A stretch of DNA of 64,000 bases from assembly GCF_965140465.1 (NCBI RefSeq), contig NZ_OZ223238.1; one strand, 5' to 3'. Below the pieces are notes generated by a model, which saw only the letters and a list, made by a program, of their open reading frames with translations, made no database searches and was not told the origin of the DNA. This document shows, in pieces, positions 8,366 through 56,087 of the stretch. The stretch comes from Roseibium sp. GTDB taxonomy: Bacteria; Pseudomonadota; Alphaproteobacteria; Rhizobiales; Stappiaceae. The translations under genes were made by a program, and so were the position numbers. The stretch's first letter is position 1. Each line of letters begins with the position of its first letter.

Positions 8366-8712
8366 GATAGGTTCCCCAACCTCAAGTTTTCACGAGAAAA
8401 ATCATGCCAATTTCAAAATAAATATTTACTAATGAATTGTTTTGATTTGAGATATGCTTCTTCAAATTTACCAAAACAATGGAATTAAGGACCTATTAAC
8501 AAATTGATAGAACAGACAGATGAGGAATCTTGGTTGATTGTCCCTGGCTGGATGCAGATTCGTTTCGGTGCGACCATTCGCTTGAAGATCCAGAAAATAC
8601 TCGCGCCATTTTCTCGTTTTTCCGAAAAGATCTCTTTCAACTTCGCCCATGGTCGTTAACGGTTCCGGGGGCCATAGTGGGGACAATTGAGACTGAAAAA
8701 GAAAGGTTGCTC

Positions 8713-9615: not shown

Positions 9616-9622
9616 GGCCGCC

Positions 9623-10492
9623 TCAAAGAGTTTCTTCAGCCGGCGTCTCTTGCAAGCTCGAAACTTCGCCGCCAATGGCAGCGGTCAACCTGTCAGCAGC
9701 GGCCATGACGGCTTCCGCCAGGACCTCCACCTTGTCCAGCGCCACCCGGCTTGTCGGCCCGGATACCGACACGCCGGCAACCGCTTCTCCGAAATGGTCA
9801 AACACCGGCGCTGCGATGCAACGCATGCCGACGTTCTTTTCCTCGCCATCAATCGAGTAGCCGCGCGCGCGAACCTGCGAAAGATCGGCGCTCAGATCTT
9901 CCGCGTCGCACAAGGTGTATTCGGTAAATCGTTCTCTCTGTCCTTTCGAAACAATCCGCTCACAGACATCCGGATCCATGAATGCCAGCAGAGCCTTGCC
10001 GATGCCCGACGCATGCATGGGCGACAACGTGCCTGGCGGGAAAAACGCTCGAATGTTCGAATGGGTCTCGACCTGACTGACAAACAGGACGTTGTGGGAC
10101 TGACCAACTCCGAGATTGGCAGTCTCACCCGTCTCTTCCATCAGATTTCTCAGGATCGGGCGGGCGCGCTCCACAAGGCTGGTTCTGCGCAGGAAGCGCG
10201 CGCCGACAATGAAGGCGCCCGGCCCGATGTGCCAGAGTTGTTCGGCCTGATCGAATTCGACCAGGCCCCGTGTTTCCAGTGTGAAGAGAATGCGGTAGAG
10301 CGTCGCCGTGGACTCGCCCGTCTGCTCCGACAGGGCAGAAAGCGACACGCCGGATTGGGTGCTCAGGTGCTCGAAAACAGCCATGGCCCGGTCAAGCGAC
10401 TTGATGGTGTTCTGACCCGATTTGTCATCCCAGGATCTCGGTCGCCCGCGTGCTCGTCTGGCCGCATTTGTCTCCATTTTCTTGTCATTCAT
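9623..10492 (-). CDS. bhcR: IclR-family transcriptional regulator, BhcR-like (glyoxylate-responsive regulator of the beta-hydroxyaspartate cycle)
   Basis: IclR HTH (ALSEQTGESTATLYRILFTLETRGLVE) followed by an effector domain. It is divergent from bhcABCD, the same arrangement as the Paracoccus denitrificans bhc locus. I placed the start at ATG 10492; the track starts at GTG 10501. Confidence 0.8.
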   Translation of the reverse strand: MNDKKMETNAARRARGRPRSWDDKSGQNTIKSLDRAMAVFEHLSTQSGVSLSALSEQTGESTATLYRILFTLETRGLVEFDQAEQLWHIGPGAFIVGARFLRRTSLVERARPILRNLMEETGETANLGVGQSHNVLFVSQVETHSNIRAFFPPGTLSPMHASGIGKALLAFMDPDVCERIVSKGQRERFTEYTLCDAEDLSADLSQVRARGYSIDGEEKNVGMRCIAAPVFDHFGEAVAGVSVSGPTSRVALDKVEVLAEAVMAAADRLTAAIGGEVSSLQETPAEETL

Positions 10493-10510
10493 GACACACA
10501 CTCAACAATC

Positions 10511-10529
10511 CGTGAAAAATCAATTCACG
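10511..10529. promoter_or_regulatory. Inverted repeat CGTGAA-N7-TTCACG in the bhcR/bhcA divergent region; candidate BhcR operator
   Basis: Perfect 6-bp arms, 19 bp upstream of the bhcR start. IclR regulators bind palindromes of this size. Confidence 0.35.
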
Positions 10530-10577
10530 ATATGAAAAAAGCAAGTCACTGACAATACTGATATTTTCTGCCTTATC

Positions 10578-10606
10578 TTTTTTTGAAAAATTTTTTTAAA
10601 AAAATT
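10578..10606 (+). promoter_or_regulatory. Phased A/T tract (T7GA5T7A7TT) upstream of bhcA; probable promoter/UP-element or DNA-bending region
   Basis: A 29-bp run of nearly pure A/T within high-GC DNA, 53-81 bp upstream of the bhcA ATG. Confidence 0.3.
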
Positions 10607-10658
10607 GCCGACTCCTGATCCGCTCCGGTACGGTTCTGGAAACTGAGAGGAAACGGCC

Positions 10659-11849
10659 ATGAGCTTTCAAAACCCTGTTTTCATTCCAGGTCCGACAAAT
10701 ATGCCCGAGGCTCTCCGCAAGGCCTGTGACATGCCGACCCTGGACCATCGCTCACCCTTGTTCGGCGAGATCCTGCGCCCGGCCTTGGCAGGCGTGAAGA
10801 AGATCCTGAAGACCGAGACTGCCGAAGTCTTCATCTTTCCGTCCACGGGAACCGGCGGTTGGGAAACTGTGATCACCAACACCCTGAGCGCAGGTGACAA
10901 GATCCTTGCCGCGCGGAACGGCATGTTCTCGCATCGCTGGATCGACATGTGTCAGCGCCACGGCCTCCAGGTCGAGATTGTCGAGACACCCTGGGGTGCC
11001 GGTCTGCCCGCCGACCGATATGAGGAAATCCTCACCGCCGACACAAACCACGAGATCAAGGCGGTTCTTGCCACGCATAACGAGACGGCAACCGGCGTCA
11101 AATCCAATATTGCCGCTGTGCGCCGGGCTCTGAATGCCGCAAAACACCCGGCCCTGTTGCTGGTAGACGGTGTCAGCTCCATCGCGTCGATGAATTTTCG
11201 CATGGACGAATGGGGGGTCGACGCCGCGGTTACCGGATCGCAGAAAGGCTTCATGCTGCCTTCCGGTCTCGCCATTGTTGCACTGTCACCAAAGGCAAGG
11301 AATGCCATTGAAGCGGCCGACCTGCCGCGTACGTTCTTCGACGTTCGGGACATGACAAAGGCCTATGAGGCCAATGCCTATCCCTATACGCCCGCCGTCG
11401 GTCTGCTGAACGGACTGAAATCGAGCTGTGACATGCTGCTGAGCGAAGGCCTGGAAAACGTCTTCACACGCCATCACCGGATCGCCGAAGGCGTGCGGGC
11501 AGCCGTGCGTGCCTGGGGCCTAGAGCTCTGTGCCAAATCGCCGGATGTCTATTCGGACACCGTCAGCGCCATCCGGACACCGGAGGGGTTCAACGCCACG
11601 GACATCGTCACGCATGCCGCCGAAAAATACGGCGTCGCCTTCGGTGTTGGTCTCGGGGAAGTCGCCGGCAAGGTTTTCCGCATCGGGCACCTTGGCAGCC
11701 TGACGGATGTCATGACCCTGTCCGGGCTGGCAACGGCCGAAATGGTCATGGCCGACCTTGGTCTCGACATCAAACTCGGCTCCGGCGTTGCCGCAGCCCA
11801 GGACTATTACCGCAATGAGGAAGCCGTTGCTTCCAAGGAGGCCGCGTGA
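10659..11849 (+). CDS. bhcA: Class V aminotransferase, aspartate-glyoxylate aminotransferase BhcA-like
   Basis: 396-aa ORF. The serine-glyoxylate/alanine-glyoxylate aminotransferase-type N-terminus is NPVFIPGPTNMPEALRKA...LDHRSP, and SQKGFMLPSGLA contains the PLP lysine. It is the first gene of a four-gene set matching bhcABCD. Confidence 0.85.
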   Translation: MSFQNPVFIPGPTNMPEALRKACDMPTLDHRSPLFGEILRPALAGVKKILKTETAEVFIFPSTGTGGWETVITNTLSAGDKILAARNGMFSHRWIDMCQRHGLQVEIVETPWGAGLPADRYEEILTADTNHEIKAVLATHNETATGVKSNIAAVRRALNAAKHPALLLVDGVSSIASMNFRMDEWGVDAAVTGSQKGFMLPSGLAIVALSPKARNAIEAADLPRTFFDVRDMTKAYEANAYPYTPAVGLLNGLKSSCDMLLSEGLENVFTRHHRIAEGVRAAVRAWGLELCAKSPDVYSDTVSAIRTPEGFNATDIVTHAAEKYGVAFGVGLGEVAGKVFRIGHLGSLTDVMTLSGLATAEMVMADLGLDIKLGSGVAAAQDYYRNEEAVASKEAA

Positions 11850-12817
11850 AAACCGACGTTTCCAACATCGACATCCCGACGCTGGAGGACATGCTTGTCG
11901 CGCATGAGCGCATCAAGCCTTACGTACACCGCACACCTGTGCTGACCTCGTCCTTTCTGAACGAACTCACGGGTGCGGAGCTGTTCTTCAAATGTGAGAA
12001 TTTCCAGAAGGCCGGTGCGTTCAAGGTGCGCGGTGCCTCCAACGCCGTGTTCGGCCTGGACGACGAAACGGCCAGGGCGGGCGTTGCCACGCACAGTTCG
12101 GGCAACCATGCCCTCAGCCTTTCCTATGCGGCCGGCCGGCGCGGCATTCCCTGCCATGTCGTCATGCCGCGCACAGCGCCGCAGGCCAAGAAAGACGCAG
12201 TTCGCGGTTATGGCGGGATCATTACCGAATGCGAACCCTCAACGTCGAGCCGTGAGGCGGTCTTCGCCGAGGTCCAGGCCGAAACCGGTGCAGAATTCGT
12301 GCATCCCTACAACGATCCGCGCGTCATTGCCGGACAGGGCACCTGCTCGAAGGAACTGATGGAACAGACAGACGGCCTTGATGCCGTGATTGCCCCTATC
12401 GGTGGCGGCGGCATGGTTTCAGGCACTTGCCTGACTTTGTCCAACCTGGCGCCTGAGGTGAAGATATATGCAGCCGAGCCCGAGCAGGCCGACGATGCAG
12501 CGCGCAGCTTTCGGGCCGGGCATATCATTGCCGATGATGCTCCGGTGACGGTTGCAGACGGGCTGAAGGTTCCGCTGAAGGATTTGACGTGGCACTTCGT
12601 TTCGAACCACGTCACCGACATCCTGACGGCCTCGGATCCCGAAATCATCGATGCCATGCGCCTGATCTGGGCGCGCATGAATATCGTGATGGAACCGTCC
12701 TCCGCCGTACCACTGGCCACACTTCTGAAAAACAAGGACACTTTCAAAGGCAAACGCGTCGGCGTGATCGTGACGGGCGGCAATGTCGACCTGAACAAAC
12801 TGCCCTGGACCCTTTGA
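11846..12817 (+). CDS. bhcB: PLP-dependent serine/threonine-dehydratase-fold enzyme, beta-hydroxyaspartate dehydratase BhcB-like
   Basis: 323-aa ORF. FKCENFQKAGAFKVRGASNAV contains the PLP lysine motif, and GGGGMVSG is the glycine loop. The GTG start overlaps the bhcA stop (GTGA), and AAGGAG lies 6 nt upstream. Confidence 0.85.
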   Translation: MKTDVSNIDIPTLEDMLVAHERIKPYVHRTPVLTSSFLNELTGAELFFKCENFQKAGAFKVRGASNAVFGLDDETARAGVATHSSGNHALSLSYAAGRRGIPCHVVMPRTAPQAKKDAVRGYGGIITECEPSTSSREAVFAEVQAETGAEFVHPYNDPRVIAGQGTCSKELMEQTDGLDAVIAPIGGGGMVSGTCLTLSNLAPEVKIYAAEPEQADDAARSFRAGHIIADDAPVTVADGLKVPLKDLTWHFVSNHVTDILTASDPEIIDAMRLIWARMNIVMEPSSAVPLATLLKNKDTFKGKRVGVIVTGGNVDLNKLPWTL

Positions 12818-42265: not shown

Positions 42266-44044
42266 TCAGATGCCGGACTGCGGTCTCATGTCCGACTTCG
42301 AGATGCCCGCGACCGCCACCGGCTTCTTCATGGCATCACGTCGGAAGGGTTCCCCCAGTTCCTGGTTGATCAGCACCTCGATCAGGGTTGTCTTGCCGTT
42401 TTTCATCTGGTCTTCGACGGCCGTATCAAGCATCTGGGTCAATTCATCCATCGTCCGTGCCTGAACACCCTGCAATCCGCAGGCCTGGGCGATCGCCGCA
42501 TAGCTGACATCCTCGTCCAGCTCGGTGCCGACGAAATTGTCTTCGTACCAGAGCGTCGAATTGCGCTTCTCCGCACCCCACTGATAATTCCGGAAGACAA
42601 CCATGGTGATGGGTGGCCATTCGCTGCGGCCGATTGCGGTAAGCTCGGTCACGGCAATGCCGAAAGCGCCGTCGCCTGCAAAGCCCACAACCGGTGTATC
42701 AGGACATCCGATCTTGGCGCCGACAATGGCCGGCAGACCGTAGCCACATGGACCGAACAGACCGGGTGCCAGATACTTGCGGCCTGCCTCGAAGGTCGGA
42801 TAGGCATTGCCGATCGCGCAGTTGTTGCCAATGTCGGAGCTGATGATCGCTTCCTTTGGCAATGCTGCCTGAATGGCCCGCCAGGCCTTGCGCGGGCTGA
42901 GCCACTCCGGCTTGGCCGCGCGTGCGCGCTCATTCCAGGTCGTGCCTGGGTCATCATCCTCATGATCCATCGAGGACAGCTGTTGTGCCCATCTGGACTT
43001 GGTCTGGGAAATCGTGTGGCGGCGCTCTTCGCGGCCGGCATCGCCCGCAGACGAGGACAGGTTTTCAAAGATGGCATCGGCAACCTTCCTGGCGTCACCG
43101 ACAATGCCCACGGAGACCGGTTTCGTCAGTCCGATCCGGTCCGGGTTGATATCAACCTGAATGATCTTGGCATCGCGCGGCCAATAGTCGATGCCGTAGC
43201 CCGGCAGGGTCGAGAACGGATTGAGCCTCGTTCCGAGCGCGAGCACGACATCGGCCTGGGAGATCAGTTCCATGCCGGCTTTCGAACCGTTATATCCGAG
43301 CGGCCCGGCAAAGAGCGGATGAGACCCCGGGAAGGCATCGTTGTGCTGGTAGCCACAGCATACGGGGGCATCGAGGCGCTCGGCCAAGGCAATCGACGAT
43401 GGAATGGCGCCCGAAAGCACCACACCCGCTCCGTTCAGGATCACCGGGAATTTTGCTTCGCTCAGAAGTCTGGCAGCATCGGCGATAGCGGTGTCCCCAC
43501 CACCCGGTCGTTCGAAATCGACGATGGCCGGCAGCTCGATATCGATCACCTGGGTCCAGAAATCGCGCGGCATGTTGATCTGCGCCGGAGCACTTGCCCG
43601 AAGCGCCTGCAGGATGACCCGGTTGAGCACTTCCGCAACACGGCTCGGGTCCCGGACTTCCTCCTGATAGGCGACCATGTCCTTGAAAAGCGCCATCTGT
43701 TCGACTTCCTGGAAACCGCCCTGACCGATGGTCTTGTTGGCAGCCTGCGGCGTGATCAGAAGCAACGGCGTGTGGTTCCAGTAAGCGGTTTTGACAGCCG
43801 TGACGAAGTTGGTGATGCCCGGTCCGTTCTGCGCGATCATCATGCTCATCTTGCCGCTGGCGCGGGTAAAGCCGTCCGCCATCATGCCACCGGAGCCTTC
43901 GTGAGCACAGTCCCAGAACGTGATCCCGGCTTCCGGAAACAGGTCGGAAATCGGCATGAAGGCGGATCCGATAATACCGAAGGCATGCTCAATTCCATGC
44001 ATCTGAAGCACTTTTACGAAGGCTTCTTCGGTTGTCATTTTCAT
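42266..44044 (-). CDS. xsc: Sulfoacetaldehyde acetyltransferase (ThDP-dependent)
   Basis: 592-aa ORF. The N-terminus MKMTTEEAFVKVLQMHGIEHAFGIIGSAFMPISDLF...ITFWDCAHEGSGGMMADGF and the ThDP motif GDGAFG...N match Xsc. Confidence 0.9.
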   Translation of the reverse strand: MKMTTEEAFVKVLQMHGIEHAFGIIGSAFMPISDLFPEAGITFWDCAHEGSGGMMADGFTRASGKMSMMIAQNGPGITNFVTAVKTAYWNHTPLLLITPQAANKTIGQGGFQEVEQMALFKDMVAYQEEVRDPSRVAEVLNRVILQALRASAPAQINMPRDFWTQVIDIELPAIVDFERPGGGDTAIADAARLLSEAKFPVILNGAGVVLSGAIPSSIALAERLDAPVCCGYQHNDAFPGSHPLFAGPLGYNGSKAGMELISQADVVLALGTRLNPFSTLPGYGIDYWPRDAKIIQVDINPDRIGLTKPVSVGIVGDARKVADAIFENLSSSAGDAGREERRHTISQTKSRWAQQLSSMDHEDDDPGTTWNERARAAKPEWLSPRKAWRAIQAALPKEAIISSDIGNNCAIGNAYPTFEAGRKYLAPGLFGPCGYGLPAIVGAKIGCPDTPVVGFAGDGAFGIAVTELTAIGRSEWPPITMVVFRNYQWGAEKRNSTLWYEDNFVGTELDEDVSYAAIAQACGLQGVQARTMDELTQMLDTAVEDQMKNGKTTLIEVLINQELGEPFRRDAMKKPVAVAGISKSDMRPQSGI

Positions 44045-44089: not shown

Positions 44090-45472
44090 TCAGCCGAATA
44101 CGGCGCCCAGGGCCTCGCCAATTGCGGATGAGATCTCGTCAATGTCGTCGGACGTGGAGATGAGAGCCGGTGCAAGGCAAAGCGTGTTGTTCAGGCCGGG
44201 CAGTGACCGGTTGGTCATGCCGATGATGACACCCTGCTTGCGGCAGTGGGCAACCACGGCCTGGACCATCGCCTCGTCGGCTGGTTCCCGCGTGGTCCGG
44301 TCCTTGACCAGTTCCGCGCCCACCAGGAGTCCCTTGCCGCGCACTTCGCCGATCACGGAATGCTTGTCCTGGAGCGTCCTGAGGTTATCCATCAGGCGCT
44401 CACCCATGCGGTCGGTGTTCTCCAGCAGGTTTTCATCTTCGATGATCCGCATGTTTTCCAAGGCCGCAGCCGGTCCGGAGGCACAACCGCCAAAGGTAGA
44501 GATGTCGCGGAAGAATCCGAGCGGATCGGACGCGTCATCCTTGAACTGGTTGAACACCTCTTCCGTGGTCACCGTGCAGGAGATCGCCGCATAGCCGGAG
44601 GCAACACCCTTGGCCATGGTCACGAAATCGGGTTTCACCCCATAGTGCTGGTAGCCGAACCATTCGCCGGTACGGCCGACACCGCAAACGACCTCGTCAA
44701 TATGGATCAGGATTTCGTAACGGTCGCAGATCTCCTGCACCCGCTCCCAATATCCCTTCGGTGGCACAATCACGCCACCGCCCGCGGTAATCGGCTCAAG
44801 GCAGATTGCGCCGATCGTGTCCGGTCCTTCCCGCAGGATGACTTCCTCGATCGCGTTAGCTGCGCGGGCACCATAGTCTTCGGGACTGTCGAACTGGTTG
44901 CGATATTCAAGGCAATGCGGCACTTCCACAAAGCCCGGCGTATAGGGTCCGTATTCAGCCGCCCGCTGCGGCTGTCCGCAGGCAGACAGGGCCGTGATCG
45001 TGGTGCCGTGGTAATCACGTTCGCGGTACAGGATCTTGCTCTTCTTGCCGCCATGGCGACGGTGCGAAATCTGGCGCACCATCTTGAAGACCTTCTCATT
45101 CGCTTCCGATCCCGAATTCGAATAATAGACGCGGGTCATGCCCGGCATCTTCTCGGTCAGTTTCTTGGCAAAGAGAGACCCTGGAATGGAGCCGGCCGCG
45201 TTGGCGAAGTAGTTCATCTTCACCAGCTGGTCGCGTACCGCATCGGCAATGCTCGTGCGGCCATAGCCGACATTGACCGTCCAGACGCCGCCGGACACTG
45301 CATCGAGGAATTCCTTCCCCGTCGCATCCCAGACCCGCATGCCCTTGCCTTCGACCATGATCTGCGGATCGTTGGTCTCAAGCGCCTTGTGCTGGAGCAG
45401 GTGATGCCAGACATGCGCCCGGTCCGACTCGATAACCTCGGAAAGGTCGTTTTTCGAAAGAACAGCGTCCAC
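44090..45472 (-). CDS. tpa: Class III aminotransferase, taurine:pyruvate aminotransferase-like
   Basis: 460-aa ORF with an omega-aminotransferase pattern (GGVWTVNVGYGR, SGSEANE, DEVVCGVGRTGEWFG, TMAKG with the PLP lysine). It lies directly upstream of xsc. Confidence 0.85.
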   Translation of the reverse strand: MDAVLSKNDLSEVIESDRAHVWHHLLQHKALETNDPQIMVEGKGMRVWDATGKEFLDAVSGGVWTVNVGYGRTSIADAVRDQLVKMNYFANAAGSIPGSLFAKKLTEKMPGMTRVYYSNSGSEANEKVFKMVRQISHRRHGGKKSKILYRERDYHGTTITALSACGQPQRAAEYGPYTPGFVEVPHCLEYRNQFDSPEDYGARAANAIEEVILREGPDTIGAICLEPITAGGGVIVPPKGYWERVQEICDRYEILIHIDEVVCGVGRTGEWFGYQHYGVKPDFVTMAKGVASGYAAISCTVTTEEVFNQFKDDASDPLGFFRDISTFGGCASGPAAALENMRIIEDENLLENTDRMGERLMDNLRTLQDKHSVIGEVRGKGLLVGAELVKDRTTREPADEAMVQAVVAHCRKQGVIIGMTNRSLPGLNNTLCLAPALISTSDDIDEISSAIGEALGAVFG

Positions 45473-45583: not shown

Positions 45584-45874
45584 ATAACGGGTCTGCCACG
45601 GCAATTGACCCGCCAGGTTTCGGACCTCGCTTTCCAGCTCTCGGCCTTTCTTCGAACGATTTGTCTGGCGAGCCACATCTCACAGGCGAGCGTCAGCCGT
45701 CCCGATTTCACCGCCAGATGAAAAAAACTTTGACTTTTTCAAACGCCTCGTGAAAAAACTAGAGAAATTTTCATTTTGCCTGCCGCGCAGCCCACTCCCA
45801 GCCGGTTTTCCATCTCCAGGGATGGTTCCCATCGCTGACGGTCTGCAGGGGCGTTAGAACCACGGGCCAGTAAA

Positions 45875-48319
45875 ATGCCATTTCCCCCCTCCAAAGCACG
45901 CGTTGTCATTATCGGTGGTGGTGTCGTCGGGTGCTCCGTTGCCTATCACCTTGTCAAAAAGGGTTGGTCTGATGTCGTACTGCTCGAACGCAAGCAGCTG
46001 ACCTCAGGCACGACCTGGCACGCGGCAGGGCTCATCGCGCAGCTGCGCGCCACTCAGAACATGACCCGGCTAGCCAAATACAGCCAGGAGCTCTACGCGG
46101 GCCTCGAAGCCGAAACCGAAGTCGCCACCGGATTCAGGCGCTGCGGATCAATCACCGTCGCACTCAGTGAAGAGCGCAACGAAGAATTGTTGAGGCAGGC
46201 CGCAATGGCACGGGCTTTCGGTGTCGAAGTCGAGGAGATCGGTCCCTCGGAGATCAAGGCGCGCTACGAGCACCTCAACATGGACGGTGTCGTGGGCGGT
46301 GTTTACCTGCCACTTGATGGTCAGGGGGATCCGGCCAACATTGCCCTGTCGCTGGCCAAGGGGGCACGGTTGGGCGGCGCCAAGGTGCTGGAGCGGGTCA
46401 AGGTCACAGGTGTCAACCGTGACGGAAGACGGATCACGGGCGTCGACTGGCAATCGGAAGACGGCAGCGGAACCATCGAGTGCGAACATGTGGTCAATTG
46501 TGGCGGCATGTGGGGTCACGAACTTGGTCGCATGACCGGCGTAAACGTGCCCTTGCATGCCTGCGAACACTTCTACATCGTCACCGACAACATTCCGGGC
46601 CTGACCCAGTTGCCCGTTCTGCGCGTTCCGGATGAATGCGCCTATTACAAGGAAGACGCCGGAAAAATCCTGCTTGGCGCCTTCGAGCCCAATGCAAAGC
46701 CCTGGGGTATGGACGGCATTCCCGACAGTTTCGAGTTCGATCAGCTCCCGGAGGATATCGAACATTTCGAACCTATCCTCGAAGCCGCGGTCAACCGGAT
46801 GCCGCTGCTCGCTGAGGCCGGTATCCATACCTTTTTCAACGGCCCCGAAAGCTTCACCCCTGACGACGCCTATCACCTGGGCCTCGGACCGACCATGGAC
46901 AATGTCTGGGTCGCTGCCGGCTTCAACTCCATCGGCATCCAGTCGGCGGGTGGAGCCGGCATGGCGCTGGCAGATTGGATGGATACCGGAGAGAAACCCT
47001 TTGACCTGGGCGATGTTGATATCGCACGCATGCAACCGTTCCAGGGCAACAAGAGCTACCTCTTCGAGCGTTCGAAGGAAACGCTTGGGCTGCTTTACGC
47101 CGACCACTTTCCGTTTCGCCAGAAAGCGACCGCACGTGGTATCCGGCGCACGCCTCTGCACGAGCACCTGAAAGCCAATGGGGCTGTCTTCGGGGAGCTC
47201 GCCGGCTGGGAACGTGCCAACTGGTTTGCAGATGAAGGCCAGGAACGGGCCTACCAGTACTCCTGGAAACGCCAGAACTGGTTCGAAAACTCGGCCCGCG
47301 AGCACATGGCTGTCCGCGAGAATGTCGGGCTCTACGACATGTCCTCTTTTGGCAAGATCCGCGTTGAAGGACCCGACGCAGAAAAATTCCTGAACTATGT
47401 CGGGGGCGGCAACTACGCCGTGCCATCAGGCAAGATCGTCTACACCCAGCTTCTGAACAACCGCGGCGGTATCGAGGCCGACGTGACGGTGACCCGCCTT
47501 TCGGAAACGGCGTATCTGGTCGTGACACCTGCCGCAACGCGCCTTGCCGACGAAACCTGGTTGCGACGGCATGCCGAGGGATTTCAGGTGGTGATCACCG
47601 ATGTCACACCGGGGGAAGCCGTCATCGCCGTCATGGGCCCTAATTCACGGACGCTGCTGCAAGCCGTTTCTCCAAACGATTTCACCAATCAGGGAAATCC
47701 GTTCGGCACGGCGCAGGAGATTGAAATCGGCATGGCACTCGCGCGCGCGCACCGCGTGACCTATGTCGGTGAACTGGGCTGGGAGATTTATGTCTCGTCG
47801 GATATGGCCGCGCATGTTTTCGAGGCTCTCCACTCCGCCTGCCGGGATCTGAACGGCCGCCTGTGCGGCATGCACATGATGGATTCCTGCCGGATCGAAA
47901 AGGGTTACCGGCATTTCGGCCACGACATCACCTGCGAAGATCATGTCCTGGAGGCAGGTCTCGGCTTCGCGGTGAAAACCGACAAGCCCGATTTCATCGG
48001 CAGGGACGCGGTGCTGCGCAAGCGCGAGAACGGGCTTGAAAAGCGTCTGCTCCAGTTCCGGCTCAAGGACCGGGAGCCGCTCCTTTATCACAACGAACCG
48101 GTTCTTCGGGACGGTGAGGTCGTCGGTTATCTTTCCAGCGGCAATTACGGACATGCCCTTGGTGCCGCCGTCGGGCTCGGCTACGTGCCTTGCAAGGGCG
48201 AAACACCGGCTCAGATGCTGAGTTCATCCTACGAGATCGACGTTGCCGGAACGCGGGTCGCTGCAGAGGCCTCCTTGAAACCGCTCTACGATCCGAAATC
48301 GGAACGCGTTAAAGTCTGA
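45875..48319 (+). CDS. FAD-dependent oxidoreductase fused to a GcvT-type folate-binding aminomethyltransferase domain (dimethylglycine/sarcosine dehydrogenase-like)
   Basis: 814-aa ORF with the N-terminal DAO dinucleotide fold VVIIGGGVVGCSVAYHL...SGTTWHAAG and a C-terminal GcvT fold (VGLYDMSSFGKIRVEGPDA, GELGWEIY). Confidence 0.85.
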   Translation: MPFPPSKARVVIIGGGVVGCSVAYHLVKKGWSDVVLLERKQLTSGTTWHAAGLIAQLRATQNMTRLAKYSQELYAGLEAETEVATGFRRCGSITVALSEERNEELLRQAAMARAFGVEVEEIGPSEIKARYEHLNMDGVVGGVYLPLDGQGDPANIALSLAKGARLGGAKVLERVKVTGVNRDGRRITGVDWQSEDGSGTIECEHVVNCGGMWGHELGRMTGVNVPLHACEHFYIVTDNIPGLTQLPVLRVPDECAYYKEDAGKILLGAFEPNAKPWGMDGIPDSFEFDQLPEDIEHFEPILEAAVNRMPLLAEAGIHTFFNGPESFTPDDAYHLGLGPTMDNVWVAAGFNSIGIQSAGGAGMALADWMDTGEKPFDLGDVDIARMQPFQGNKSYLFERSKETLGLLYADHFPFRQKATARGIRRTPLHEHLKANGAVFGELAGWERANWFADEGQERAYQYSWKRQNWFENSAREHMAVRENVGLYDMSSFGKIRVEGPDAEKFLNYVGGGNYAVPSGKIVYTQLLNNRGGIEADVTVTRLSETAYLVVTPAATRLADETWLRRHAEGFQVVITDVTPGEAVIAVMGPNSRTLLQAVSPNDFTNQGNPFGTAQEIEIGMALARAHRVTYVGELGWEIYVSSDMAAHVFEALHSACRDLNGRLCGMHMMDSCRIEKGYRHFGHDITCEDHVLEAGLGFAVKTDKPDFIGRDAVLRKRENGLEKRLLQFRLKDREPLLYHNEPVLRDGEVVGYLSSGNYGHALGAAVGLGYVPCKGETPAQMLSSSYEIDVAGTRVAAEASLKPLYDPKSERVKV

Positions 48320-48384
48320 CGCGGTCTGTTTGCGTAAAACGGCTCAGCGATAACGGACCTGCCCGGCATGGCCGGGCACAGGTT

Positions 48385-49935
48385 TCAGCTTCTAGCGAGG
48401 TCAGCCAGGGGGAATGCTGCCCGCAGCGATGTGTCGGTCGCCGGATCGATTTGATGGGCTTCCTGGGAGAGAATTGACCTCACCCGTTCCGCGGCCGTGT
48501 TCAGCAGTCGCGGCTTGCCCAGTTCTTCCCATTCCTTCGGGCTGGAGCGGTTTGCCAGTTCCGGATAGACATATTCGCTCTGCATCAGCTGCAGCGTCTG
48601 GTCATGGCCGAGATAGTGACCCGGCCCGTCCAGGACAACGGAGCGGATCACGTCGATATCGACATATTCATCCTTGACCTCAACGCCCCTGACGCAGCGA
48701 AGCACCTGGCCGAGCATGTCGTTGCCAAGCACAAGCGATTCCATGCAGAACCCGAGCAGGGACGCGTGCATGCCAACAGCTTCGTAGACCATGTTCAGAC
48801 CTGAAAGTCCGGCCATGACATTGCTGATGCCCTGTTCCCAGCCCGCCTGCATGTCGGGCAGCTTGGAATCCGCTATTCCTGCAGCGGCCCCGCCTGGGAG
48901 ACCGTAAAACTTGTGCATCTGGGCGCAGGCTGCGCTCAACAAAGCCTGTTCACCGCTGCCGCCCGACATTGCGCCGGTCCGAAGATCGCTGACAAAGGGC
49001 CAGGTTCCGAATACTGCGGGATGTCCGGGCTTGACCGCGTTGACATAGACAACACCAGCCAGGCACTCGGCGACGGCCTGCACCACCGCCGTGGCAATCG
49101 GTGCCGGGGCGGTCGCCCCCGCCTGACCCGCAGACAGAAGCAGGACCGGCATGCCGGCATGGATACAGGCCTCCATGACCTCGCAGCTTTCCTCGGCAAA
49201 GGTCAGTGGCGGCACGACAAAACAATTGGAATTCGACACGAAAGGCCGGGCGCGCCAGGCGTCCTCCCCACCTGCGATTTCATGCAGCAGTTTCACGCAG
49301 CGATGGACATTGGTGGCCTCGGTAAAGGAGGTCCCGATGTGCTTCGTGGTGCCGGCGCAGGCAGCATAAACCGTGTTGAGGTCCAGTTCCTGCGGGTCGG
49401 CGAATTCCCGGCAGACAAGCGGGCGCTGAAAGAAGTGGACATTGTCGAGACGCTGGACGATGCGCGCAGCATCGTAGAGGTCCTGGACGTTCGGATTTCG
49501 GTAGTTGCCGGTTTCAGGTTCCACGATGTGAACGGCGGCTCCCGCAGTTCCGAAATGAACCTTGTTGCCCTGAAGGTCGAGATCGAACTGCGGGTCCCGG
49601 CCGCACAGGGTGACTGTCTTGCTGGCTTTCGCCAGCATGTCCTCGACAAGAGCACGTGGAAACCGGATACGGCCATCATCCCCTTCAAGGGCACCGGCCT
49701 CTGTAAGATAGGCGCGTCCCGAGGCCGGAGCAGATCCCATGCCGACCTGTTCAAGCGCGTTCAGGGCAGCCTCGTGGATACGCAGCACGTCCTCGTCCTT
49801 CAGAGGCCTGTACTGTCCGCCCGGCATGCCCGGCCAGACGGGACGCACCGCCGCATCAAGCGGACGGGAACGGGCCGCCGTGCGTGCGGAACGGCCGCCG
49901 GCGCGGCGACGTTGCTTCAGTTCACTCCCGACCAT
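48385..49935 (-). CDS. MttB-superfamily methyltransferase, non-pyrrolysine class (quaternary-amine methyltransferase-like)
   Basis: 516-aa uninterrupted ORF with no internal TAG. It has the Arg-rich N-terminus typical of non-Pyl MttB homologs (RRRAGGRSARTAARSRPL) and TIM-barrel-length homology by pattern (VLRIHEAALNALEQVGM, NSNCFVVPPLTF). Confidence 0.8.
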   Translation of the reverse strand: MVGSELKQRRRAGGRSARTAARSRPLDAAVRPVWPGMPGGQYRPLKDEDVLRIHEAALNALEQVGMGSAPASGRAYLTEAGALEGDDGRIRFPRALVEDMLAKASKTVTLCGRDPQFDLDLQGNKVHFGTAGAAVHIVEPETGNYRNPNVQDLYDAARIVQRLDNVHFFQRPLVCREFADPQELDLNTVYAACAGTTKHIGTSFTEATNVHRCVKLLHEIAGGEDAWRARPFVSNSNCFVVPPLTFAEESCEVMEACIHAGMPVLLLSAGQAGATAPAPIATAVVQAVAECLAGVVYVNAVKPGHPAVFGTWPFVSDLRTGAMSGGSGEQALLSAACAQMHKFYGLPGGAAAGIADSKLPDMQAGWEQGISNVMAGLSGLNMVYEAVGMHASLLGFCMESLVLGNDMLGQVLRCVRGVEVKDEYVDIDVIRSVVLDGPGHYLGHDQTLQLMQSEYVYPELANRSSPKEWEELGKPRLLNTAAERVRSILSQEAHQIDPATDTSLRAAFPLADLARS

Positions 49936-49982
49936 GAGTCTCCTCCAAAATCATGTCAAAGAGAAATCCAGTTTTTAGTGGC

Positions 49983-52424
49983 TCACGCCCGTATGCGCGC
50001 GTTTTCCGGATCCCAAAGCGGTGCATCCGCCTGAACTGTCGCCTTGCAGAGCTTGCCGTAGATTTCCACCTCGAGCTCTGTTCCCGGCTCCGCCAGGTCC
50101 GCACGAACCATGCCCAGCGCGATCGAGGCATTCACCCGGTATCCCCAGCCACCCGAGGTGACTTCGCCGACGAGATCGCCACCTTGAAGGATTGCCGCCA
50201 TGTAGGGGGCGTCGCAGTCTCCGGCATCAACCAAAAGGGTGACAAAACGCTTTTTCGAACCCTGCTGCCTTTCGTTCATCAAGGCCGATTTGCCCGGGAA
50301 ATCCTGCGGCTTGTCCAGCTTGACGAAACGATCGAGCCCCCCTTCAAGAAGCGAGTAGTCCGTGGACAGGTCTCCCTTCCAGGTGCGATACCCTTTTTCC
50401 AGCCGCAGCGCATTGAGGGCATACATGCCGAATGGCCTGGCACCGGCCTCCAGGATCGTTTCATAGATGAGCGGCATATCCTTAAAACTTGCATGGACCT
50501 CCCATCCGAGTTCCCCGGCAAAGGACACCCGCACGAGCATCGCTTCTTTTCCTGCGACCTTCGCCTCCTGATGGGTCAGCCAACCGAGCGACAGATCGGC
50601 GTCGGCAATCTTTTCGAAGAGCTCCCTCGACTTTGGACCACTCACGATCAGGGTCGACAGGTCCAGTGTTCTGTCGACAAGCTCCAAACCGTCAACAAGA
50701 TTGAATTTCAGCACTTCAAAGTCGTGCCACTGTGCTGCCGCGGCCGTTATCAGCGTGAACACATCCTCGTCGTGCCGGATCACCGACATTTCGGTCAGGA
50801 TGCGCCCGCGATCATCGGCAAAATAGGCAAGATTCAGACGACCCACCTTCGGCAACGCGCCGGTAATCCTGCCGCGCAGCCATTCGGCGGCACCTTCACC
50901 ACTCAGGCTGAAGCGCGAGAAACCCGGGAGATCCAGAACTCCGACGCTGTCCCGAACAGCTTCACACTCCTCGCGAATGCGTGGTTCCCAGGGACCAGAG
51001 CGCTTCCAGGTCTGGGTGGCTTCTTCCGACGTGTCGTCACCCGGCTTCGCGAACCAGTTGGCACGTTCCCAGCCATTGTAGGTTCCCATCTGGCCACCCA
51101 GCTCCAACATCTTGTCGTGGAGGGCCGATTTCTTGCGGTCACGTCCAGCCGGCCAGCTGTGATGCGGGAAGTGCATCGCGTATTCATGGCCATAGACCTC
51201 CATCGCCTTGTCGATGCAGTAGTCCTTGTCGGTATAGTCGGTGTAGCGGCGCGGATCGCAACACCACATGTCCCACTCGGTCTGGCCGTTGACGATCCAT
51301 TCGGCGGCCACCTTGCCGGCGCCACCGCCCTGGGCGATGCCGAAGGTGAAGGTGTGGGCTTCAAAAGCATTGGGGACGCCCGGCATCGGACCGATCATCG
51401 GAAGTCCGTCCGGAGCATAGGGGATCGGACCGTTGATGTTGCGGCTGACACCCTGCGTTCCAAGCAGCGGCACGCGCGCCATGGCATCTTCGATGTACCA
51501 TTCCAACCTGTCCAGGTCGTCCGGATAAAGCTGGAAGCTGAAGTCGTCGGGCATGGGATCATCCGGCCGGACCCAGGCTGCCTGGCAATTTCGCTCATAG
51601 GGTCCGAGATTGAACCCGGTGGTTTCCTGGCGAAGATAGTAGGACGAGTCGACGTCTCTGAGCAGCGGCAGCTTGCGGCCGTGTTTTTCGCTCCACGCTG
51701 CAATCTCCGGAACCGGTTCGGTCAGGAAATACTGGTGGCTCATCACGGCCGCCGGCACCGGGCGTCCTCCGTGAGGGATGAACCATTCACCGACCCTCGG
51801 CGCATAATAGCCCGCCGCGTTCACCACGAATTCGCAGCGAATGTCGCCCTTTTCGGTGTGCACGATCCATTCGCCATTTTCTCTGCTGACACCGCTGGCA
51901 GGCGTGAAGCGAAGGATCTTCGCGCCCATGGCTCGGGCACCTTTAGCGAGCGCCTGCGTGACCTGGGCCGGGTCGATGTCCCCGTCGAGCGGATCCCAAA
52001 GCCCGCCTTCCAGGTCATGTGTCTCCATGAACGGGTAGTGCTCAAGCAGCTGGTCGGGCGTGCAGACATCCATCTCAAGGCCCATGTGACGGCCCATGGT
52101 GGCGGCGTGTTCAAATTCCATCATGCGTTCATGGGAATGCGCCAGACGAACCGACCCGGTCACATGATAATTGATCGGGTAGTCGACTTCGTCTACAAGG
52201 CCCCGGTAGAGCTCCAGACCATAACGCTGCATGTTCATGACGCCGAAGCTCATGGCAAAGTTCGGACAGTTGCCCGCCGCATGCCATGTGGACCCCGCGG
52301 TGAGTTCGTTCTTTTCCAGTAGAACGCAATCCGACCATCCGAATTTGGCGAGGTGATAAAGCGTGGATACACCAACGATACCACCGCCGATAATCACGAC
52401 ACGGGCTGTAGAAGGCACAGACAT
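49983..52424 (-). CDS. Second FAD oxidoreductase / GcvT-domain fusion (dimethylglycine dehydrogenase-like paralog)
   Basis: 813-aa ORF with VVIIGGGIVGVSTLYHL...AGSTWHAAGNCPNF and a C-terminal GcvT domain (VGVLDLPGFSRFSLSGEGA, GELGWEVH). Confidence 0.85.
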   Translation of the reverse strand: MSVPSTARVVIIGGGIVGVSTLYHLAKFGWSDCVLLEKNELTAGSTWHAAGNCPNFAMSFGVMNMQRYGLELYRGLVDEVDYPINYHVTGSVRLAHSHERMMEFEHAATMGRHMGLEMDVCTPDQLLEHYPFMETHDLEGGLWDPLDGDIDPAQVTQALAKGARAMGAKILRFTPASGVSRENGEWIVHTEKGDIRCEFVVNAAGYYAPRVGEWFIPHGGRPVPAAVMSHQYFLTEPVPEIAAWSEKHGRKLPLLRDVDSSYYLRQETTGFNLGPYERNCQAAWVRPDDPMPDDFSFQLYPDDLDRLEWYIEDAMARVPLLGTQGVSRNINGPIPYAPDGLPMIGPMPGVPNAFEAHTFTFGIAQGGGAGKVAAEWIVNGQTEWDMWCCDPRRYTDYTDKDYCIDKAMEVYGHEYAMHFPHHSWPAGRDRKKSALHDKMLELGGQMGTYNGWERANWFAKPGDDTSEEATQTWKRSGPWEPRIREECEAVRDSVGVLDLPGFSRFSLSGEGAAEWLRGRITGALPKVGRLNLAYFADDRGRILTEMSVIRHDEDVFTLITAAAAQWHDFEVLKFNLVDGLELVDRTLDLSTLIVSGPKSRELFEKIADADLSLGWLTHQEAKVAGKEAMLVRVSFAGELGWEVHASFKDMPLIYETILEAGARPFGMYALNALRLEKGYRTWKGDLSTDYSLLEGGLDRFVKLDKPQDFPGKSALMNERQQGSKKRFVTLLVDAGDCDAPYMAAILQGGDLVGEVTSGGWGYRVNASIALGMVRADLAEPGTELEVEIYGKLCKATVQADAPLWDPENARIRA

Positions 52425-52448
52425 TCCAATGACCTTTTATAAGAGCTG

Positions 52449-53006
52449 TCAGTAAACAGGCGGGGAAATCACCCAGACGGCTACGGCCGGCTCCGAGTAG
52501 GGATTTTCCCAGCGATAGGAGGATTCGCGAATGCGGAAACTGTCGCCCGCTTCGATCGTGAATTTTTCGTCGTCCAGCCAGACATCGAGTTTGCCGGACA
52601 CCAGATAGGCGACTTCCTGCGTCGGACGCGAAATCGGGTCCGTTCGGCGCGAACCGGGCTGGAATGTCGAATGGATCATTTCGAAACTGTCGGTCAGGTC
52701 AGGAGAAATCAGGGTTTCGACCAGGCCCCTGTCCCGCTCTCCGATCACCCGCCTGGACCCGGCGCGCACAATCCGGCCCTGTTCGTTCTCCGGCGCATCC
52801 GTGCTGCCGAAAAAGAGCGACAACTGAACACCGAAGATATCGGCAATCTGTTTGAGATCCGACATGCGCGGCACGGAAATGTCGCGTTCAACCTGAGACA
52901 GCCAGCCAACAGATCGGCCGAGCCGCTGAGCCAGCTCTTCAAGGGTCATTTTCCGGGTAATTCTGAGAGCCCTCAGGTCCTCACCCAAACTGCCAGTTTC
53001 AGCCAT
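52449..53006 (-). CDS. XRE-family HTH regulator with a C-terminal cupin sensor domain
   Basis: 185-aa ORF with the HTH LRALRITRKMTLEELAQRLGRSVGWLSQVERD and a cupin barrel (EVAYLVSGKLDVWLDDEKFTIEAGDSFRI). It is the first gene of the operon containing the DMGDH-like and MttB genes. Confidence 0.85.
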   Translation of the reverse strand: MAETGSLGEDLRALRITRKMTLEELAQRLGRSVGWLSQVERDISVPRMSDLKQIADIFGVQLSLFFGSTDAPENEQGRIVRAGSRRVIGERDRGLVETLISPDLTDSFEMIHSTFQPGSRRTDPISRPTQEVAYLVSGKLDVWLDDEKFTIEAGDSFRIRESSYRWENPYSEPAVAVWVISPPVY

Positions 53007-53017
53007 TGCGATCCGCT

Positions 53018-53030
53018 CGTGAAAATTTCA
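53018..53030. promoter_or_regulatory. Palindrome GTGAAA-A-TTTCAC immediately upstream of the XRE-cupin gene
   Basis: Perfect 6-1-6 palindrome, 12 bp from the start codon, followed by TTTCAT-N8-ATGAAA (53037-53056). Candidate autoregulatory operator. Confidence 0.35.
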
Positions 53031-53135
53031 CCGATAATTTCATGCAGAAAAATGAAAAAATCAACGAAAATCTCACGAAGCCAAGCCGGCGCGCGAAATG
53101 CCTTCCAAAACGTCAGCCAAGCAGACGATCCGGGC

Positions 53136-54602
53136 TTAGCCGGCTTTGCCCAATTCCTGCGCCAACAAGGAGATTCCACCGGGTATGCGGGCAGCCGCGA
53201 TTGAGGAGTACGCCAGCCGGTAGAACCCGGGCTGTTCCTGGTCGCTTGCGAAGAACGCCCGGCCTGGCTCGATCAGCACACCATGCTTGCGCAAGCGCAT
53301 GGCGAGTTCGGAACTGTCGACGCCTTCCGGCGCCCGCATCCAGAAGGAAGACCCGCCAAACGTGTCCTGTTCAGACTGGAACAGGCCGTGTTCCTTCATG
53401 CTGTATTCCATGGTCGACCGGCGCTTGCGGTAGGTTCGGCCCATCCGCGTGATCTGGGCGTCATAGTGGCCGAGGGACAGGAAATAGGCAGCCGTTCGCT
53501 GGATGAGCCCGGGAGGATGGCGAAGGACAAGCGAACGCAGGGCGCGCGCCTCGCGAATGAAAGGTTCGGATGCAACGATGTATCCGAGCCTCAGGCCGGG
53601 GAACATCGACTTGGAAAAGGAGCCGATATAGATCACCGACCCGGTCGGATCGATCGACTTGAGAGCCGGGGACGGCGATTTCAGAAACGAGATTTCGAAT
53701 TCATAATCGTCCTCGACAATGATGAAACCGTCTCTCGCGGCCCGCTCCAGCAAACGCTTGCGCCGGTCGAACGGCATGGTGGCATTGGTCGGGCAGTGAT
53801 GACTTGGTGTCGTGAACACCACATCCAACGCCTCCGGCAGGTCCTCAGGTGGCAGACCGGAACCGTCGACATCCACCGAAACGGTGTTGCATCGTGTTTG
53901 CGCGAGGATCTGGCGCAGCCCTGGATAACAGGGGTTTTCCATCACCGCGGTTCGCCGCTGAGTCAGCAGGATCTGGGCGGTGATCCAGAGCGCGTGCTGG
54001 GCGCCCATGGTGATCAGGATTTCTTCCGGCTTGGCGTTGATGCCCCGTCGCGGCAGGATCTGGCGCAGGATGAACTCGACCAGCATCGGGTCGTCCCGCT
54101 CGTAATAGTCGGTCGCAAGCGTATCGAAATCCTTGCGCCCAACCGCTTTCAACGCACAATTGCGCCAATTGTGGTGGTCGAACAGTCTTGGATCGAACTG
54201 CCCGTAGATAAAGGGATACTTGTAGTCCCTCCAGTTTTCCGGGCGGACCAGCGTGATGTGCTCGGAGAAGCGCTGGCCGATGGTGCGGGACCAGTCGACC
54301 TGGGACCTGTCGGCCTGATCCGGCAGATCGAATGTTGGACGGCTCGGTGCCGTTTGGGCGACGAAATAACCGGACCGTCCCCGGGATTCCAGATATTCAT
54401 TGGAGACCAGTTCCGTATAGGCGATCGTGACCGTGATCCGTGCGATGCCGAGATGCTTGGCCAGCTTGCGCGTGGAGGGCATCTTTTCACCCGGCAGGCA
54501 TCTGCCGGACAGGATCGCCTCGACGACCAGTCGCTGGATCTGCTGCTGCAGCGTCGTCTCATTGTCCGGCTTGATGAAGAACGTTTCGGCAGGAATTGCC
54601 AT
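53136..54602 (-). CDS. tauR: MocR/GabR-type regulator (GntR HTH fused to an aminotransferase-fold domain), TauR-like
   Basis: 488-aa ORF with the N-terminal wHTH LQQQIQRLVVEAILSGRCLPGEKMPSTRKLAKHLGIARITVTIAYTELVSNEYLESRGRSGYFV and a fold-type I PLP domain (YIGSFSKSMFPGLRLGY). It lies next to tauABC and is flanked by CTGGAC(C/T)TA repeats. Confidence 0.8.
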   Translation of the reverse strand: MAIPAETFFIKPDNETTLQQQIQRLVVEAILSGRCLPGEKMPSTRKLAKHLGIARITVTIAYTELVSNEYLESRGRSGYFVAQTAPSRPTFDLPDQADRSQVDWSRTIGQRFSEHITLVRPENWRDYKYPFIYGQFDPRLFDHHNWRNCALKAVGRKDFDTLATDYYERDDPMLVEFILRQILPRRGINAKPEEILITMGAQHALWITAQILLTQRRTAVMENPCYPGLRQILAQTRCNTVSVDVDGSGLPPEDLPEALDVVFTTPSHHCPTNATMPFDRRKRLLERAARDGFIIVEDDYEFEISFLKSPSPALKSIDPTGSVIYIGSFSKSMFPGLRLGYIVASEPFIREARALRSLVLRHPPGLIQRTAAYFLSLGHYDAQITRMGRTYRKRRSTMEYSMKEHGLFQSEQDTFGGSSFWMRAPEGVDSSELAMRLRKHGVLIEPGRAFFASDQEQPGFYRLAYSSIAAARIPGGISLLAQELGKAG

Positions 54603-55088: not shown

Positions 55089-56087
55089 ATGACATCCAGA
55101 TCAAAAATATGCAGCGCATTGGCCGCCATGACCCTGCTCGGCAGCGTTCAGATGGCCGCCGCCGAGGACGAGCTGACCGTGGCTTACTTCCTTGAATGGC
55201 CGATGCCGTTCCAATACGCCAAGGTGAAGGGCCTGTATGACGAAGCACTCGGCGTGCCGGTCAAATGGGTTTCGTTCGACACCGGTACGGCAATGTCCGC
55301 GGCCATGGCTTCCGGCGATGTGCAGATTGCCGTGAGCCAGGGCGTGCCGCCATTCGTGGTTGCGACCTCCGCCGGCCAGGACCTCAAATTGACAGACGTT
55401 GCCGTGAGCTATTCCGACAACGACAATTGCGTGGTCGCGGAAGCACTGGAAATCGAGAAGGGCAACGCCAAGGAACTCGAAGGCAAGAAGGTCGGTGTGC
55501 CGATCGGAACGGCCGCACATTTCGGCTTCCTTGAGCAAATGAAGCATTTCAACGTCGACATCACCACGATGGAAATCGTTGACATGGCTCCTGCCGACGG
55601 TGCTGCGGCCTTTGCCCAGGGCAATCTCGACATGGTCTGCGGTTGGGGCGGTGCGCTGCGCCGCATGAAAGAGCATGGCAACGTCCTGCTGACAGGCGCA
55701 GAGAAGGAAGAACTCGGGATCCTCGTGTTCGACGCCATCACTGCCCCGGCTGATTTCGTCTCCGAAAACCCGGACATGATGGCCAAGTTCCTGAAAGTCA
55801 CCGCTGACGCCAATGCCAAGTGGAACGCTGGCGGCGACAAGGCTGAAATGCTGGCCGTGATCGCCAAGGATGCCGGTATGGATCCGGCCGACGCGGAAGC
55901 CTCCCTTGCCACCTTCACCTTCCCGTCGACCGAGGAAGCCCTGAGTGACAAGTGGCTCGGCGGAAACGTTCAGTCCTTCATGCTGGGTGTTGCCAATGTC
56001 TTCCTGGAGGCAGGCTCCATTCCGTCTGCACTCGAAACTTACGAGACCACGGTGGACGCAGGTCCGCTGACTGCTGCTGCGCAATAA
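55089..56087 (+). CDS. tauA: Taurine ABC transporter periplasmic binding protein
   Basis: 332-aa ORF with a signal peptide (ALAAMTLLGSVQMAAA) and NMT1/TauA-type content (LTVAYFLEWPMP, WVSFDTGTAMSAAMASGDVQIA). Confidence 0.8.
   Translation: MTSRSKICSALAAMTLLGSVQMAAAEDELTVAYFLEWPMPFQYAKVKGLYDEALGVPVKWVSFDTGTAMSAAMASGDVQIAVSQGVPPFVVATSAGQDLKLTDVAVSYSDNDNCVVAEALEIEKGNAKELEGKKVGVPIGTAAHFGFLEQMKHFNVDITTMEIVDMAPADGAAAFAQGNLDMVCGWGGALRRMKEHGNVLLTGAEKEELGILVFDAITAPADFVSENPDMMAKFLKVTADANAKWNAGGDKAEMLAVIAKDAGMDPADAEASLATFTFPSTEEALSDKWLGGNVQSFMLGVANVFLEAGSIPSALETYETTVDAGPLTAAAQ

Follow-up and report, generated by a model that had tools for sequence, protein, structure and literature searches.

A divergent MttB-family methyltransferase linked to two dimethylglycine dehydrogenase-like flavoenzymes in Roseibium: a probable demethylation module with an unlinked corrinoid hub

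In the MtgBCD(E) systems of Ruegeria pomeroyi DSS-3 and Phaeobacter inhibens, both aerobic alphaproteobacteria, genes for PF06253 (MttB-family) methyltransferases are unlinked to a single hub of MtgC, MtgD, RamA, DUF1638 and MetF2 genes (PMC12478193; bioRxiv 10.64898/2025.12.19.695462). The MtgC and MtgD proteins of these systems are common to the glycine betaine demethylase and a split methionine synthase, several MttB paralogs occur per genome, and the later methyls are taken by folate-dependent flavoenzymes. In R. pomeroyi, unlinked MtgC and MtgD were shown genetically to be essential for glycine betaine demethylation and methionine synthesis, and RamA and DUF1638 were induced together with them (PMC12478193). 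Aerobic marine bacteria are now documented to have unlinked corrinoid hubs as the norm, and one hub is suspected to serve as many as seven PF06253 paralogs in a genome (PMC12478193). MtgB1 of P. inhibens was confirmed genetically, while the other three of its four paralogs are uncharacterised (bioRxiv 10.64898/2025.12.19.695462). The MtgBCD discovery (2025) left open the roles of the extra MttB paralogs in marine and soil alphaproteobacteria. One such paralog is described here: a divergent MttB gene adjoined by two dimethylglycine dehydrogenase (DMGDH)-like genes, A and B, and by a gene for an XRE-cupin regulator. The genes lie in a 64,000-nucleotide stretch (the window; genome positions 3920666-3984665) of the genome of Roseibium sp., a single 5.79-Mb contig (NZ_OZ223238.1).

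The glycine betaine-binding residues of MtgB were established by mutagenesis and a ligand-bound structure in a 2026 study: the aromatic pair Y97/F356 grips the trimethylammonium head by cation-pi contacts, and R312 and H348 bind the carboxylate. Among the characterised MttB members without pyrrolysine, conservation is complete for R312 and extensive for His348 (PMC13080624). MtgB (DSY3156) of Desulfitobacterium hafniense and MtcB, MtpB, MtyB and MthB of Eubacterium limosum share with the window MttB the Pfam family, the TIM-barrel fold family, the lack of pyrrolysine and the presumed methyl transfer to Co(I) (PMC13080624, PMC8604678). These enzymes adjoin their own corrinoid protein in anaerobes and conserve Arg312; in contrast, the window MttB has Gly349 and Glu385 in its pocket and is distant from MtgB.

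The window MttB probably belongs to a self-contained module for demethylation, equipped with an XRE-cupin regulator of its own, that strips three N-methyl groups from a trimethylammonium compound via a shared corrinoid hub. The original prediction, made from the window alone, had described a minus-strand operon of a regulator, an FAD/GcvT oxidase and MttB converging on a second FAD/GcvT oxidase gene, and all four reading frames were found where it had placed them (Table 1). The XRE-cupin, B and MttB genes were assigned to one operon because their spacers are only 24 bp (XRE-cupin/B) and 47 bp (B/MttB); gene A runs convergent to it. A GC-rich hairpin between the convergent stop codons of MttB and A is likely a bidirectional terminator. 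Both A and B were placed in the dimethylglycine/sarcosine dehydrogenase family by their four domains and by full-length alignment to DMGDH. Flavoenzyme B scored 565 bits to the rat enzyme (4pab), and the scores of A were 443 bits with rat DMGDH and 422 with Arthrobacter dimethylglycine oxidase. The end-to-end alignment and four-domain architecture are common to A, B, the mammalian DMGDH structures (4pab, 5l46) and the Arthrobacter oxidase (1pj5). Unlike those enzymes, A and B are two of six DMGDH-type paralogs in one genome, with 33% mutual identity. The XRE-cupin protein showed a weak likeness to PuuR, and orthologs at 50-79% identity stood ahead of the module in nine loci.

Neighbourhoods within 10 kb were compared for 80 genome loci carrying MttB orthologs at 66-88% identity; the nearest named relatives of the window MttB were from Roseibium (84-85% identity). 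Orthologs of both A (65-87% identity) and B (61-89%) adjoined the MttB ortholog in 45 of the 80 loci, in several orders. Nine loci, mostly at contig ends, had an A ortholog only, and 26 had neither, including many Yoonia-type loci and short contigs. The association of A, B and MttB is not a product of chance. The layout XRE-cupin, B, MttB, A was found in Roseibium, Tropicimonas, Meridianimarinicoccus and a metagenome-assembled genome (MAG) of Geminicoccales. A second layout, in which a LysR gene is divergent from B, A and MttB, was found in Gemmobacter, Rhodobacter, Tabrizicola, Hoeflea and others, and was often followed by genes for a BADH-like aldehyde dehydrogenase, an HIBADH-like reductase and cystathionine gamma-lyase. 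In Roseibium album, A and MttB share a strand, and tpa is located upstream of tauR; the convergent layout of the window is therefore a local rearrangement.

Variants of these layouts were also seen. A gene of the PEP-mutase/isocitrate-lyase family lies between A and MttB in Tabrizicola-type loci (e.g., 9138-9968 in one locus). In Yoonia and relatives, MttB orthologs (68-72% identity) were accompanied by LysR and usually an HIBADH-like gene, with no A or B orthologs within 10 kb. In an Inquilinaceae MAG locus (5007-9914), B and A read as a single uninterrupted frame of 1635 aa, either a natural B-A fusion or an assembly frameshift near the B end; an out-of-frame TGA and a GGAGG sequence are present at the junction.

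The window MttB matched PF06253 at 355.4 bits (cut-off 25) over residues 11-506 and profile positions 1-490 of 500, which places it within the family. Its score to TIGR02369, the equivalog for pyrrolysine-containing MttB, was 346.6 bits against a cut-off of 525, and it does not qualify as a genuine trimethylamine methyltransferase. The frame is open without an internal stop, and Ile354 aligns with the pyrrolysine of Methanosarcina barkeri MttB (7xcl), in agreement with the earlier description of an uncharacterised member without pyrrolysine. Although the M. barkeri enzyme was the best-scoring solved relative and shares the conserved flanks of the active-site loop (SDAKVPD there, ADSKLPD here), the window gene differs in having no UAG/pyrrolysine, an aerobic host and no MttC neighbour. 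Placement was by bit scores to PDB chains and diagnostic residues. Scores to solved MttB-family structures reached only 135-181 bits (181 to 7xcl over residues 47-500, 170 to MtgB, and 135 to S. meliloti 4yyc), while the three other paralogs of the genome scored 323-780 bits to MtgB and 4yyc, both without pyrrolysine. The four paralogs lie at 1.74, 3.97 (window), 5.07 and 5.34 Mb, and the window copy is the most divergent, at 24-26% identity to the others.

The pocket was compared by a sequence alignment in which the invariant LP and GxN blocks served as anchors. At the MtgB positions Y97, R312, H348 and F356, the window MttB has Gly132, Gly349, Glu385 and Leu393, respectively, and all four replacements were invariant across 23 orthologs. 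The motif around Gly349 is LPGG here versus VPSR in MtgB and LPFR/LPLR in the paralogs, and the motif around Glu385 is NMVYEAVG versus NFVLHTAG; the Arg and His are kept in the three other paralogs of the genome. The window MttB therefore lacks both the acidic quaternary-amine signature (Arg312/His348 of the MtgB, MtcB, MtpB, MtyB and MthB type) and the aromatic pair of MtgB. Sister subfamilies from other alphaproteobacteria (40-61% identity) have the Glu and lack the Arg, and several adjoin a DMGDH-like gene. By its low bit scores and identities and its four replaced residues, the window MttB is, on alignment, a separate and deeply diverging branch of the superfamily whose pocket has been rebuilt. 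The altered pocket suggests chemistry or specificity beyond the known acidic betaines.

An ordinary glycine betaine route, in which MttB would be MtgB and A and B would be the dimethylglycine and sarcosine dehydrogenases yielding glycine, is improbable. The full-length matches of both flavoenzymes to mammalian DMGDH, the BADH-like aldehyde dehydrogenase following the trio in many Paracoccaceae, and the frequent clustering of glycine betaine demethylation genes in marine bacteria (PMC12478193) would all suit it. Glycine betaine is nevertheless an unlikely substrate because the four residues that hold it in MtgB are replaced throughout the 23 orthologs (PMC13080624) and because a better MtgB candidate, with its own DMGDH-like gene and mtgE, lies at 1.74 Mb. 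The outcome that the original prediction had foreseen should a corrinoid partner be encoded elsewhere, an ordinary MtgB-type system, does not apply given the same replacements. In R. pomeroyi, the products of SPO3396 (DMGDH-like) and SPO3400 (aminomethyltransferase-family), whose genes flank the S-methyltransferase gene SPO3398, changed little in proteomes on glycine betaine, choline or carnitine; as possible orthologs of the module genes, they offer a lead only.

The loss of acid-binding residues could instead reflect a non-acidic methylamine (trimethylamine, choline or a methylated diamine) bound via the invariant Glu385, which would make the enzyme a pyrrolysine-free counterpart of true MttB. 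This was judged unlikely, though not as improbable as glycine betaine. The changes of Arg312 to Gly and His348 to Glu, shared with the sister subfamilies, and the top PDB score to pyrrolysine-containing MttB are in its favour, as is one sister gene, from a 1.7-Mb genome, that adjoins a PotD/PotF-class ABC transporter. However, the difference between 181 and 170 bits is trivial, Glu385 could equally steady a trimethylammonium head in place of the lost aromatics, DMGDH-family enzymes are known for carboxylate substrates, and no context gene pointed to trimethylamine or choline. By rough odds, the share left after glycine betaine, non-acidic amines and the taurine derivatives considered below would fall to other betaines.

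All matches to B12-binding, B12-binding_2, RACo and MtgD in a whole-genome search (tblastn for MtgD) fell outside the window, and the window thus holds no corrinoid gene, as the original prediction had reported. The genome search that it had proposed for B12-binding proteins and cob genes recovered one small corrinoid protein, a RamA-type activase, and the cobalamin synthesis markers CbiC and CobS. The corrinoid protein and the activase belong to a clustered MtgBCD-type gene set of MtgC, MtgD, RamA-type activase and DUF1638 at 2.050-2.058 Mb, 1.9 Mb from the module. The hub genes were in the order: formate-tetrahydrofolate ligase (FTHFS), corrinoid protein, DUF1638, a weak MTHFR match (MetF-like), a Pterin_bind methyltransferase (MtgD), and a RACo/Fer2 activase (RamA-type). 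MtgC is a 238-aa protein with B12-binding_2 and B12-binding domains and the sequence GDIHDIGKN (DxHxxG motif); between families of the order its identity is 80-88%. By tblastn against the genome, MtgC, MtgD, RamA and DUF1638 were each present in a single copy, MetH domains at 0.70 Mb aside. The absent partner, which had been read as a puzzle or as a pointer to a role without corrinoid, is accounted for by this unlinked hub, by the published MtgBCD arrangement of R. pomeroyi and by the distribution of RamA described below. With a corrinoid protein and an activase encoded elsewhere, most of what the original prediction had named as grounds for its own rejection is present. In comparison with the MtgBCD(E) systems, the window MttB falls in another deep clade from the MtgB-like paralogs, lacks the betaine-binding residues and is tightly linked to two DMGDH-like genes and an XRE-cupin regulator. 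Alongside split MtgC/D/E the genome also keeps a classical MetH, an open frame of 1262 aa (704033-706630) that combines S-methyl_trans, Pterin_bind and B12-binding domains.

The distribution of the clade was measured in a sample of 401 alphaproteobacterial genomes, with membership set at E <= 1e-100 and RamA identified as PF14574. The clade occurred in 44 genomes (about a tenth) from many families, and RamA in 93. RamA was present in 43 of the 44 clade-bearing genomes versus 50 of the 357 others; the sole clade-bearing genome without RamA was a 91%-complete assembly of 240 contigs. The small-genome carriers (1.4-2.6 Mb) were considered as corrinoid-free, SAR11-like cells, a possibility that was ruled out as all of them have RamA.

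These counts bear on whether the clade works without corrinoid at all, passing methyl directly to tetrahydrofolate on the GcvT domain of a partner or serving a non-methyltransferase role, to which very little credence was given. In 79 of the 80 loci the surrounding 10 kb hold no corrinoid gene, the clade is as far from MtgB as from pyrrolysine-containing MttB, and its pocket residues are unlike those of all characterised corrinoid-dependent members. However, every characterised superfamily member methylates a corrinoid (PMC13080624, PMC8604678), and unlinked hubs are the norm noted above. When hub proteins were searched against the 80 loci with tblastn, mtgD and a MetF-like gene were found near the trio only in Pararhodobacter, at 1.3 kb, and an mtgE-like gene in one locus; a Pfam scan found a shorter MtgE-like homocysteine S-methyltransferase between B and A in a few loci. 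The co-occurrence with RamA, the Pararhodobacter mtgD linkage and the MtgE-like insertions argue against a corrinoid-free role.

In the proposed pathway, the divergent MttB would begin by transferring one methyl to MtgC in its Co(I) state, and MtgD would then pass it to tetrahydrofolate, with a single hub common to all four MttB paralogs of the genome. As their family suggests, A and B would oxidise the di- and mono-methylamine, with each methyl leaving as methylene-tetrahydrofolate and a primary amine remaining. A donor with three N-methyls that ends as a primary amine is favoured because two dedicated DMGDH-type enzymes are present. The hybrid route of the original prediction, in which MttB removes one methyl and the others are removed oxidatively, fits both the anatomy of the module and the accepted glycine betaine scheme; its supposed corrinoid gap does not stand, as the hub is elsewhere.

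Several points weigh against this pathway. Docking of MttB to MtgC and methylation of it have only the indirect support of the co-occurrence with RamA, which is confounded: as a rule these genomes also hold MtgB-type paralogs and a split methionine synthase, and would have the hub in any case. Related genomes in the 401-genome sample are also not independent. A complex prediction of the window MttB with MtgC, run without controls, scored 0.21 against a mark of 0.32 and favours neither binding nor its absence. The step order and the roles of A and B follow from family membership and are provisional. Finally, Arg312, His348 and both aromatics are lost, and because this pocket differs from that of every characterised member, the quaternary-amine substrate is itself an extrapolation.

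As the original prediction had observed, the module sits between two halves of the taurine genes, here tauR-tauABC and tpa-xsc; beyond Xsc were acetate kinase and a molybdoenzyme downstream of ackA. A refinement of the proposed pathway would make the substrate N,N,N-trimethyltaurine (taurobetaine) or another N-methylated taurine, converted stepwise into taurine by MttB and the two flavoenzymes. The taurine would induce the flanking TauR regulon and be broken down through Tpa, Xsc, acetate kinase and the molybdoenzyme. Marine algae and invertebrates contain methylated taurines. This substrate is doubtful, although it was ranked above non-acidic amines. Two other Roseibium genomes likewise have the module between tauR-tauABC and tpa-xsc, and a MAG locus (88% identity, cut upstream) has xsc, ack and a soeA-like gene downstream. 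In Tropicimonas (Rhodobacterales) the module follows tpa-tauR-PMT_2-xsc-PF03601 on the same strand, so that the linkage persists in both genera although gene order differs. The TauA-like binding protein scored far under the taurine equivalog cut-offs (158 versus 304 bits and 99 versus 490 bits). Its ligand may be other than taurine, which suits a methylated taurine.

Against this, taurine genes flank only five of the 80 loci (Roseibium and Tropicimonas), one of these by SoeA alone, and the linkage in the two genera could stem from one transfer. Most orthologs (66-72% identity) are from freshwater and marine Paracoccaceae and lie beside LysR, BADH-like, HIBADH-like and cystathionine gamma-lyase genes. 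The other XRE-cupin loci had no taurine genes within 10 kb; two of these with the same gene order (Geminicoccales and Meridianimarinicoccus) were Pfam-annotated. A sulfonate carries an acid group, yet the Arg and His that would hold one are missing, and no paper tying MttB to taurine or methylated taurines turned up in the literature searched.

The operator of the module is likewise distinct from the TauR-type repeats. Ahead of the XRE gene is a perfect palindrome, GTGAAA-A-TTTCAC, with further half-sites, which the XRE protein would bind. Repeats similar to GTGAAA/TTTCAC also stand ahead of the orthologous XRE genes of Roseibium, Tropicimonas and several MAGs. A related motif precedes gene A, which may thereby be co-regulated with the XRE operon; the same spacer also holds TauR-type CTGGACCTAT/TTGGCCCTAT repeats facing tpa. 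From these motifs, the module appears to be its own regulon and not part of the TauR regulon.

The unlinked MtgBCD hub was already known, and it explains the missing corrinoid partner. What is new is a widespread deep MttB branch with a changed active site and two fixed DMGDH-like partners (45 of the 80 loci). Packaged with two enzymes for finishing demethylation, the clade would mark a complete, widespread sink for a methylated nitrogen compound tied to vitamin B12 supply, and the identity of the substrate would give a new marker gene for methylated-amine turnover. A more speculative possibility, to which a minor share of belief was assigned, is a corrinoid-dependent pathway for a trimethylammonium compound outside the characterised MttB range that in Roseibium and Tropicimonas would run from N,N,N-trimethyltaurine through dimethyl- and N-methyltaurine to taurine and on to Tpa/Xsc. 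If true, this would establish a further MttB subfamily, recognisable by Gly and Glu at the positions of the acid-binding Arg and His, and a new way into marine organosulfur cycling. The classical MetH makes the strain a convenient host for such studies, since mutations in the hub should then not entail methionine auxotrophy.

Table 1. Features of the module, its flanks and the MttB paralogs of the genome. Positions are those of the window unless given in Mb (genome).
Feature	Position	Strand	Details
XRE-family HTH + cupin regulator	52449-53006	minus	185 aa; HTH_31/HTH_3 + Cupin_2; opens operon
DMGDH-like flavoenzyme B	49983-52424	minus	813 aa; DAO + FAO_M + GCV_T + GCV_T_C
Divergent MttB-family methyltransferase without pyrrolysine	48385-49935	minus	516 aa; PF06253 MTTB
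DMGDH-like flavoenzyme A	45875-48319	plus	814 aa; DAO + FAO_M + GCV_T + GCV_T_C
Inverted repeat CTGCCCGGC-ATG-GCCGGGCAG	48359-48379	none	GC-rich hairpin between convergent stop codons of MttB and A
Operator-like repeats upstream of XRE gene	53017-53082		palindrome GTGAAAATTTCAC at 53019; more GAAAAT/TTTCA half-sites
Operator-like motif CTCGTGAAAAAA...GAGAAATTTTCAT	45748-45780		upstream of gene A; two mismatches to XRE-gene palindrome
MocR-type regulator	53136-54602		flank on XRE-cupin side
TauA-like ABC binding protein	55089-56087		flank on XRE-cupin side
Class-III aminotransferase	44090-45472		flank on gene A side
Xsc	42266-44044		flank on gene A side; 1042 bits to NF005713
MttB paralog	1.74 Mb		DMGDH-like gene + mtgE-type gene; 780 bits to 4yyc, 447 to MtgB
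MttB paralog (window)	3.97 Mb		DMGDH-like A + B, XRE-cupin; 135 bits to 4yyc, 170 to MtgB
MttB paralog	5.07 Mb		DMGDH-like gene + M24 creatinase-like gene; 366 bits to 4yyc, 323 to MtgB
MttB paralog	5.34 Mb		enolase-superfamily gene + LysR regulator; 615 bits to 4yyc, 401 to MtgB

The other three MttB paralogs had contexts of their own. Region 1730000-1748000 (4300-9943 therein) is likely the true glycine betaine locus of the genome. The paralog there runs divergently to genes for an 859-aa DMGDH-like protein and a homocysteine S-methyltransferase of MtgE type; a 2537-aa polyketide synthase gene adjoins the locus. In region 5331000-5349000 (7467-11328 therein), the paralog lies by an MR_MLE gene and the LysR regulator, a setting that presumably resembles the contexts of proline/hydroxyproline betaine epimerases. 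In region 5058000-5076000 (4869-12640 therein), the paralog, a DMGDH-like gene of 811 aa and the M24 creatinase/prolidase-like gene are lined up like an operon, and opposite this row are genes for an APH-family kinase and an ABC ATPase.

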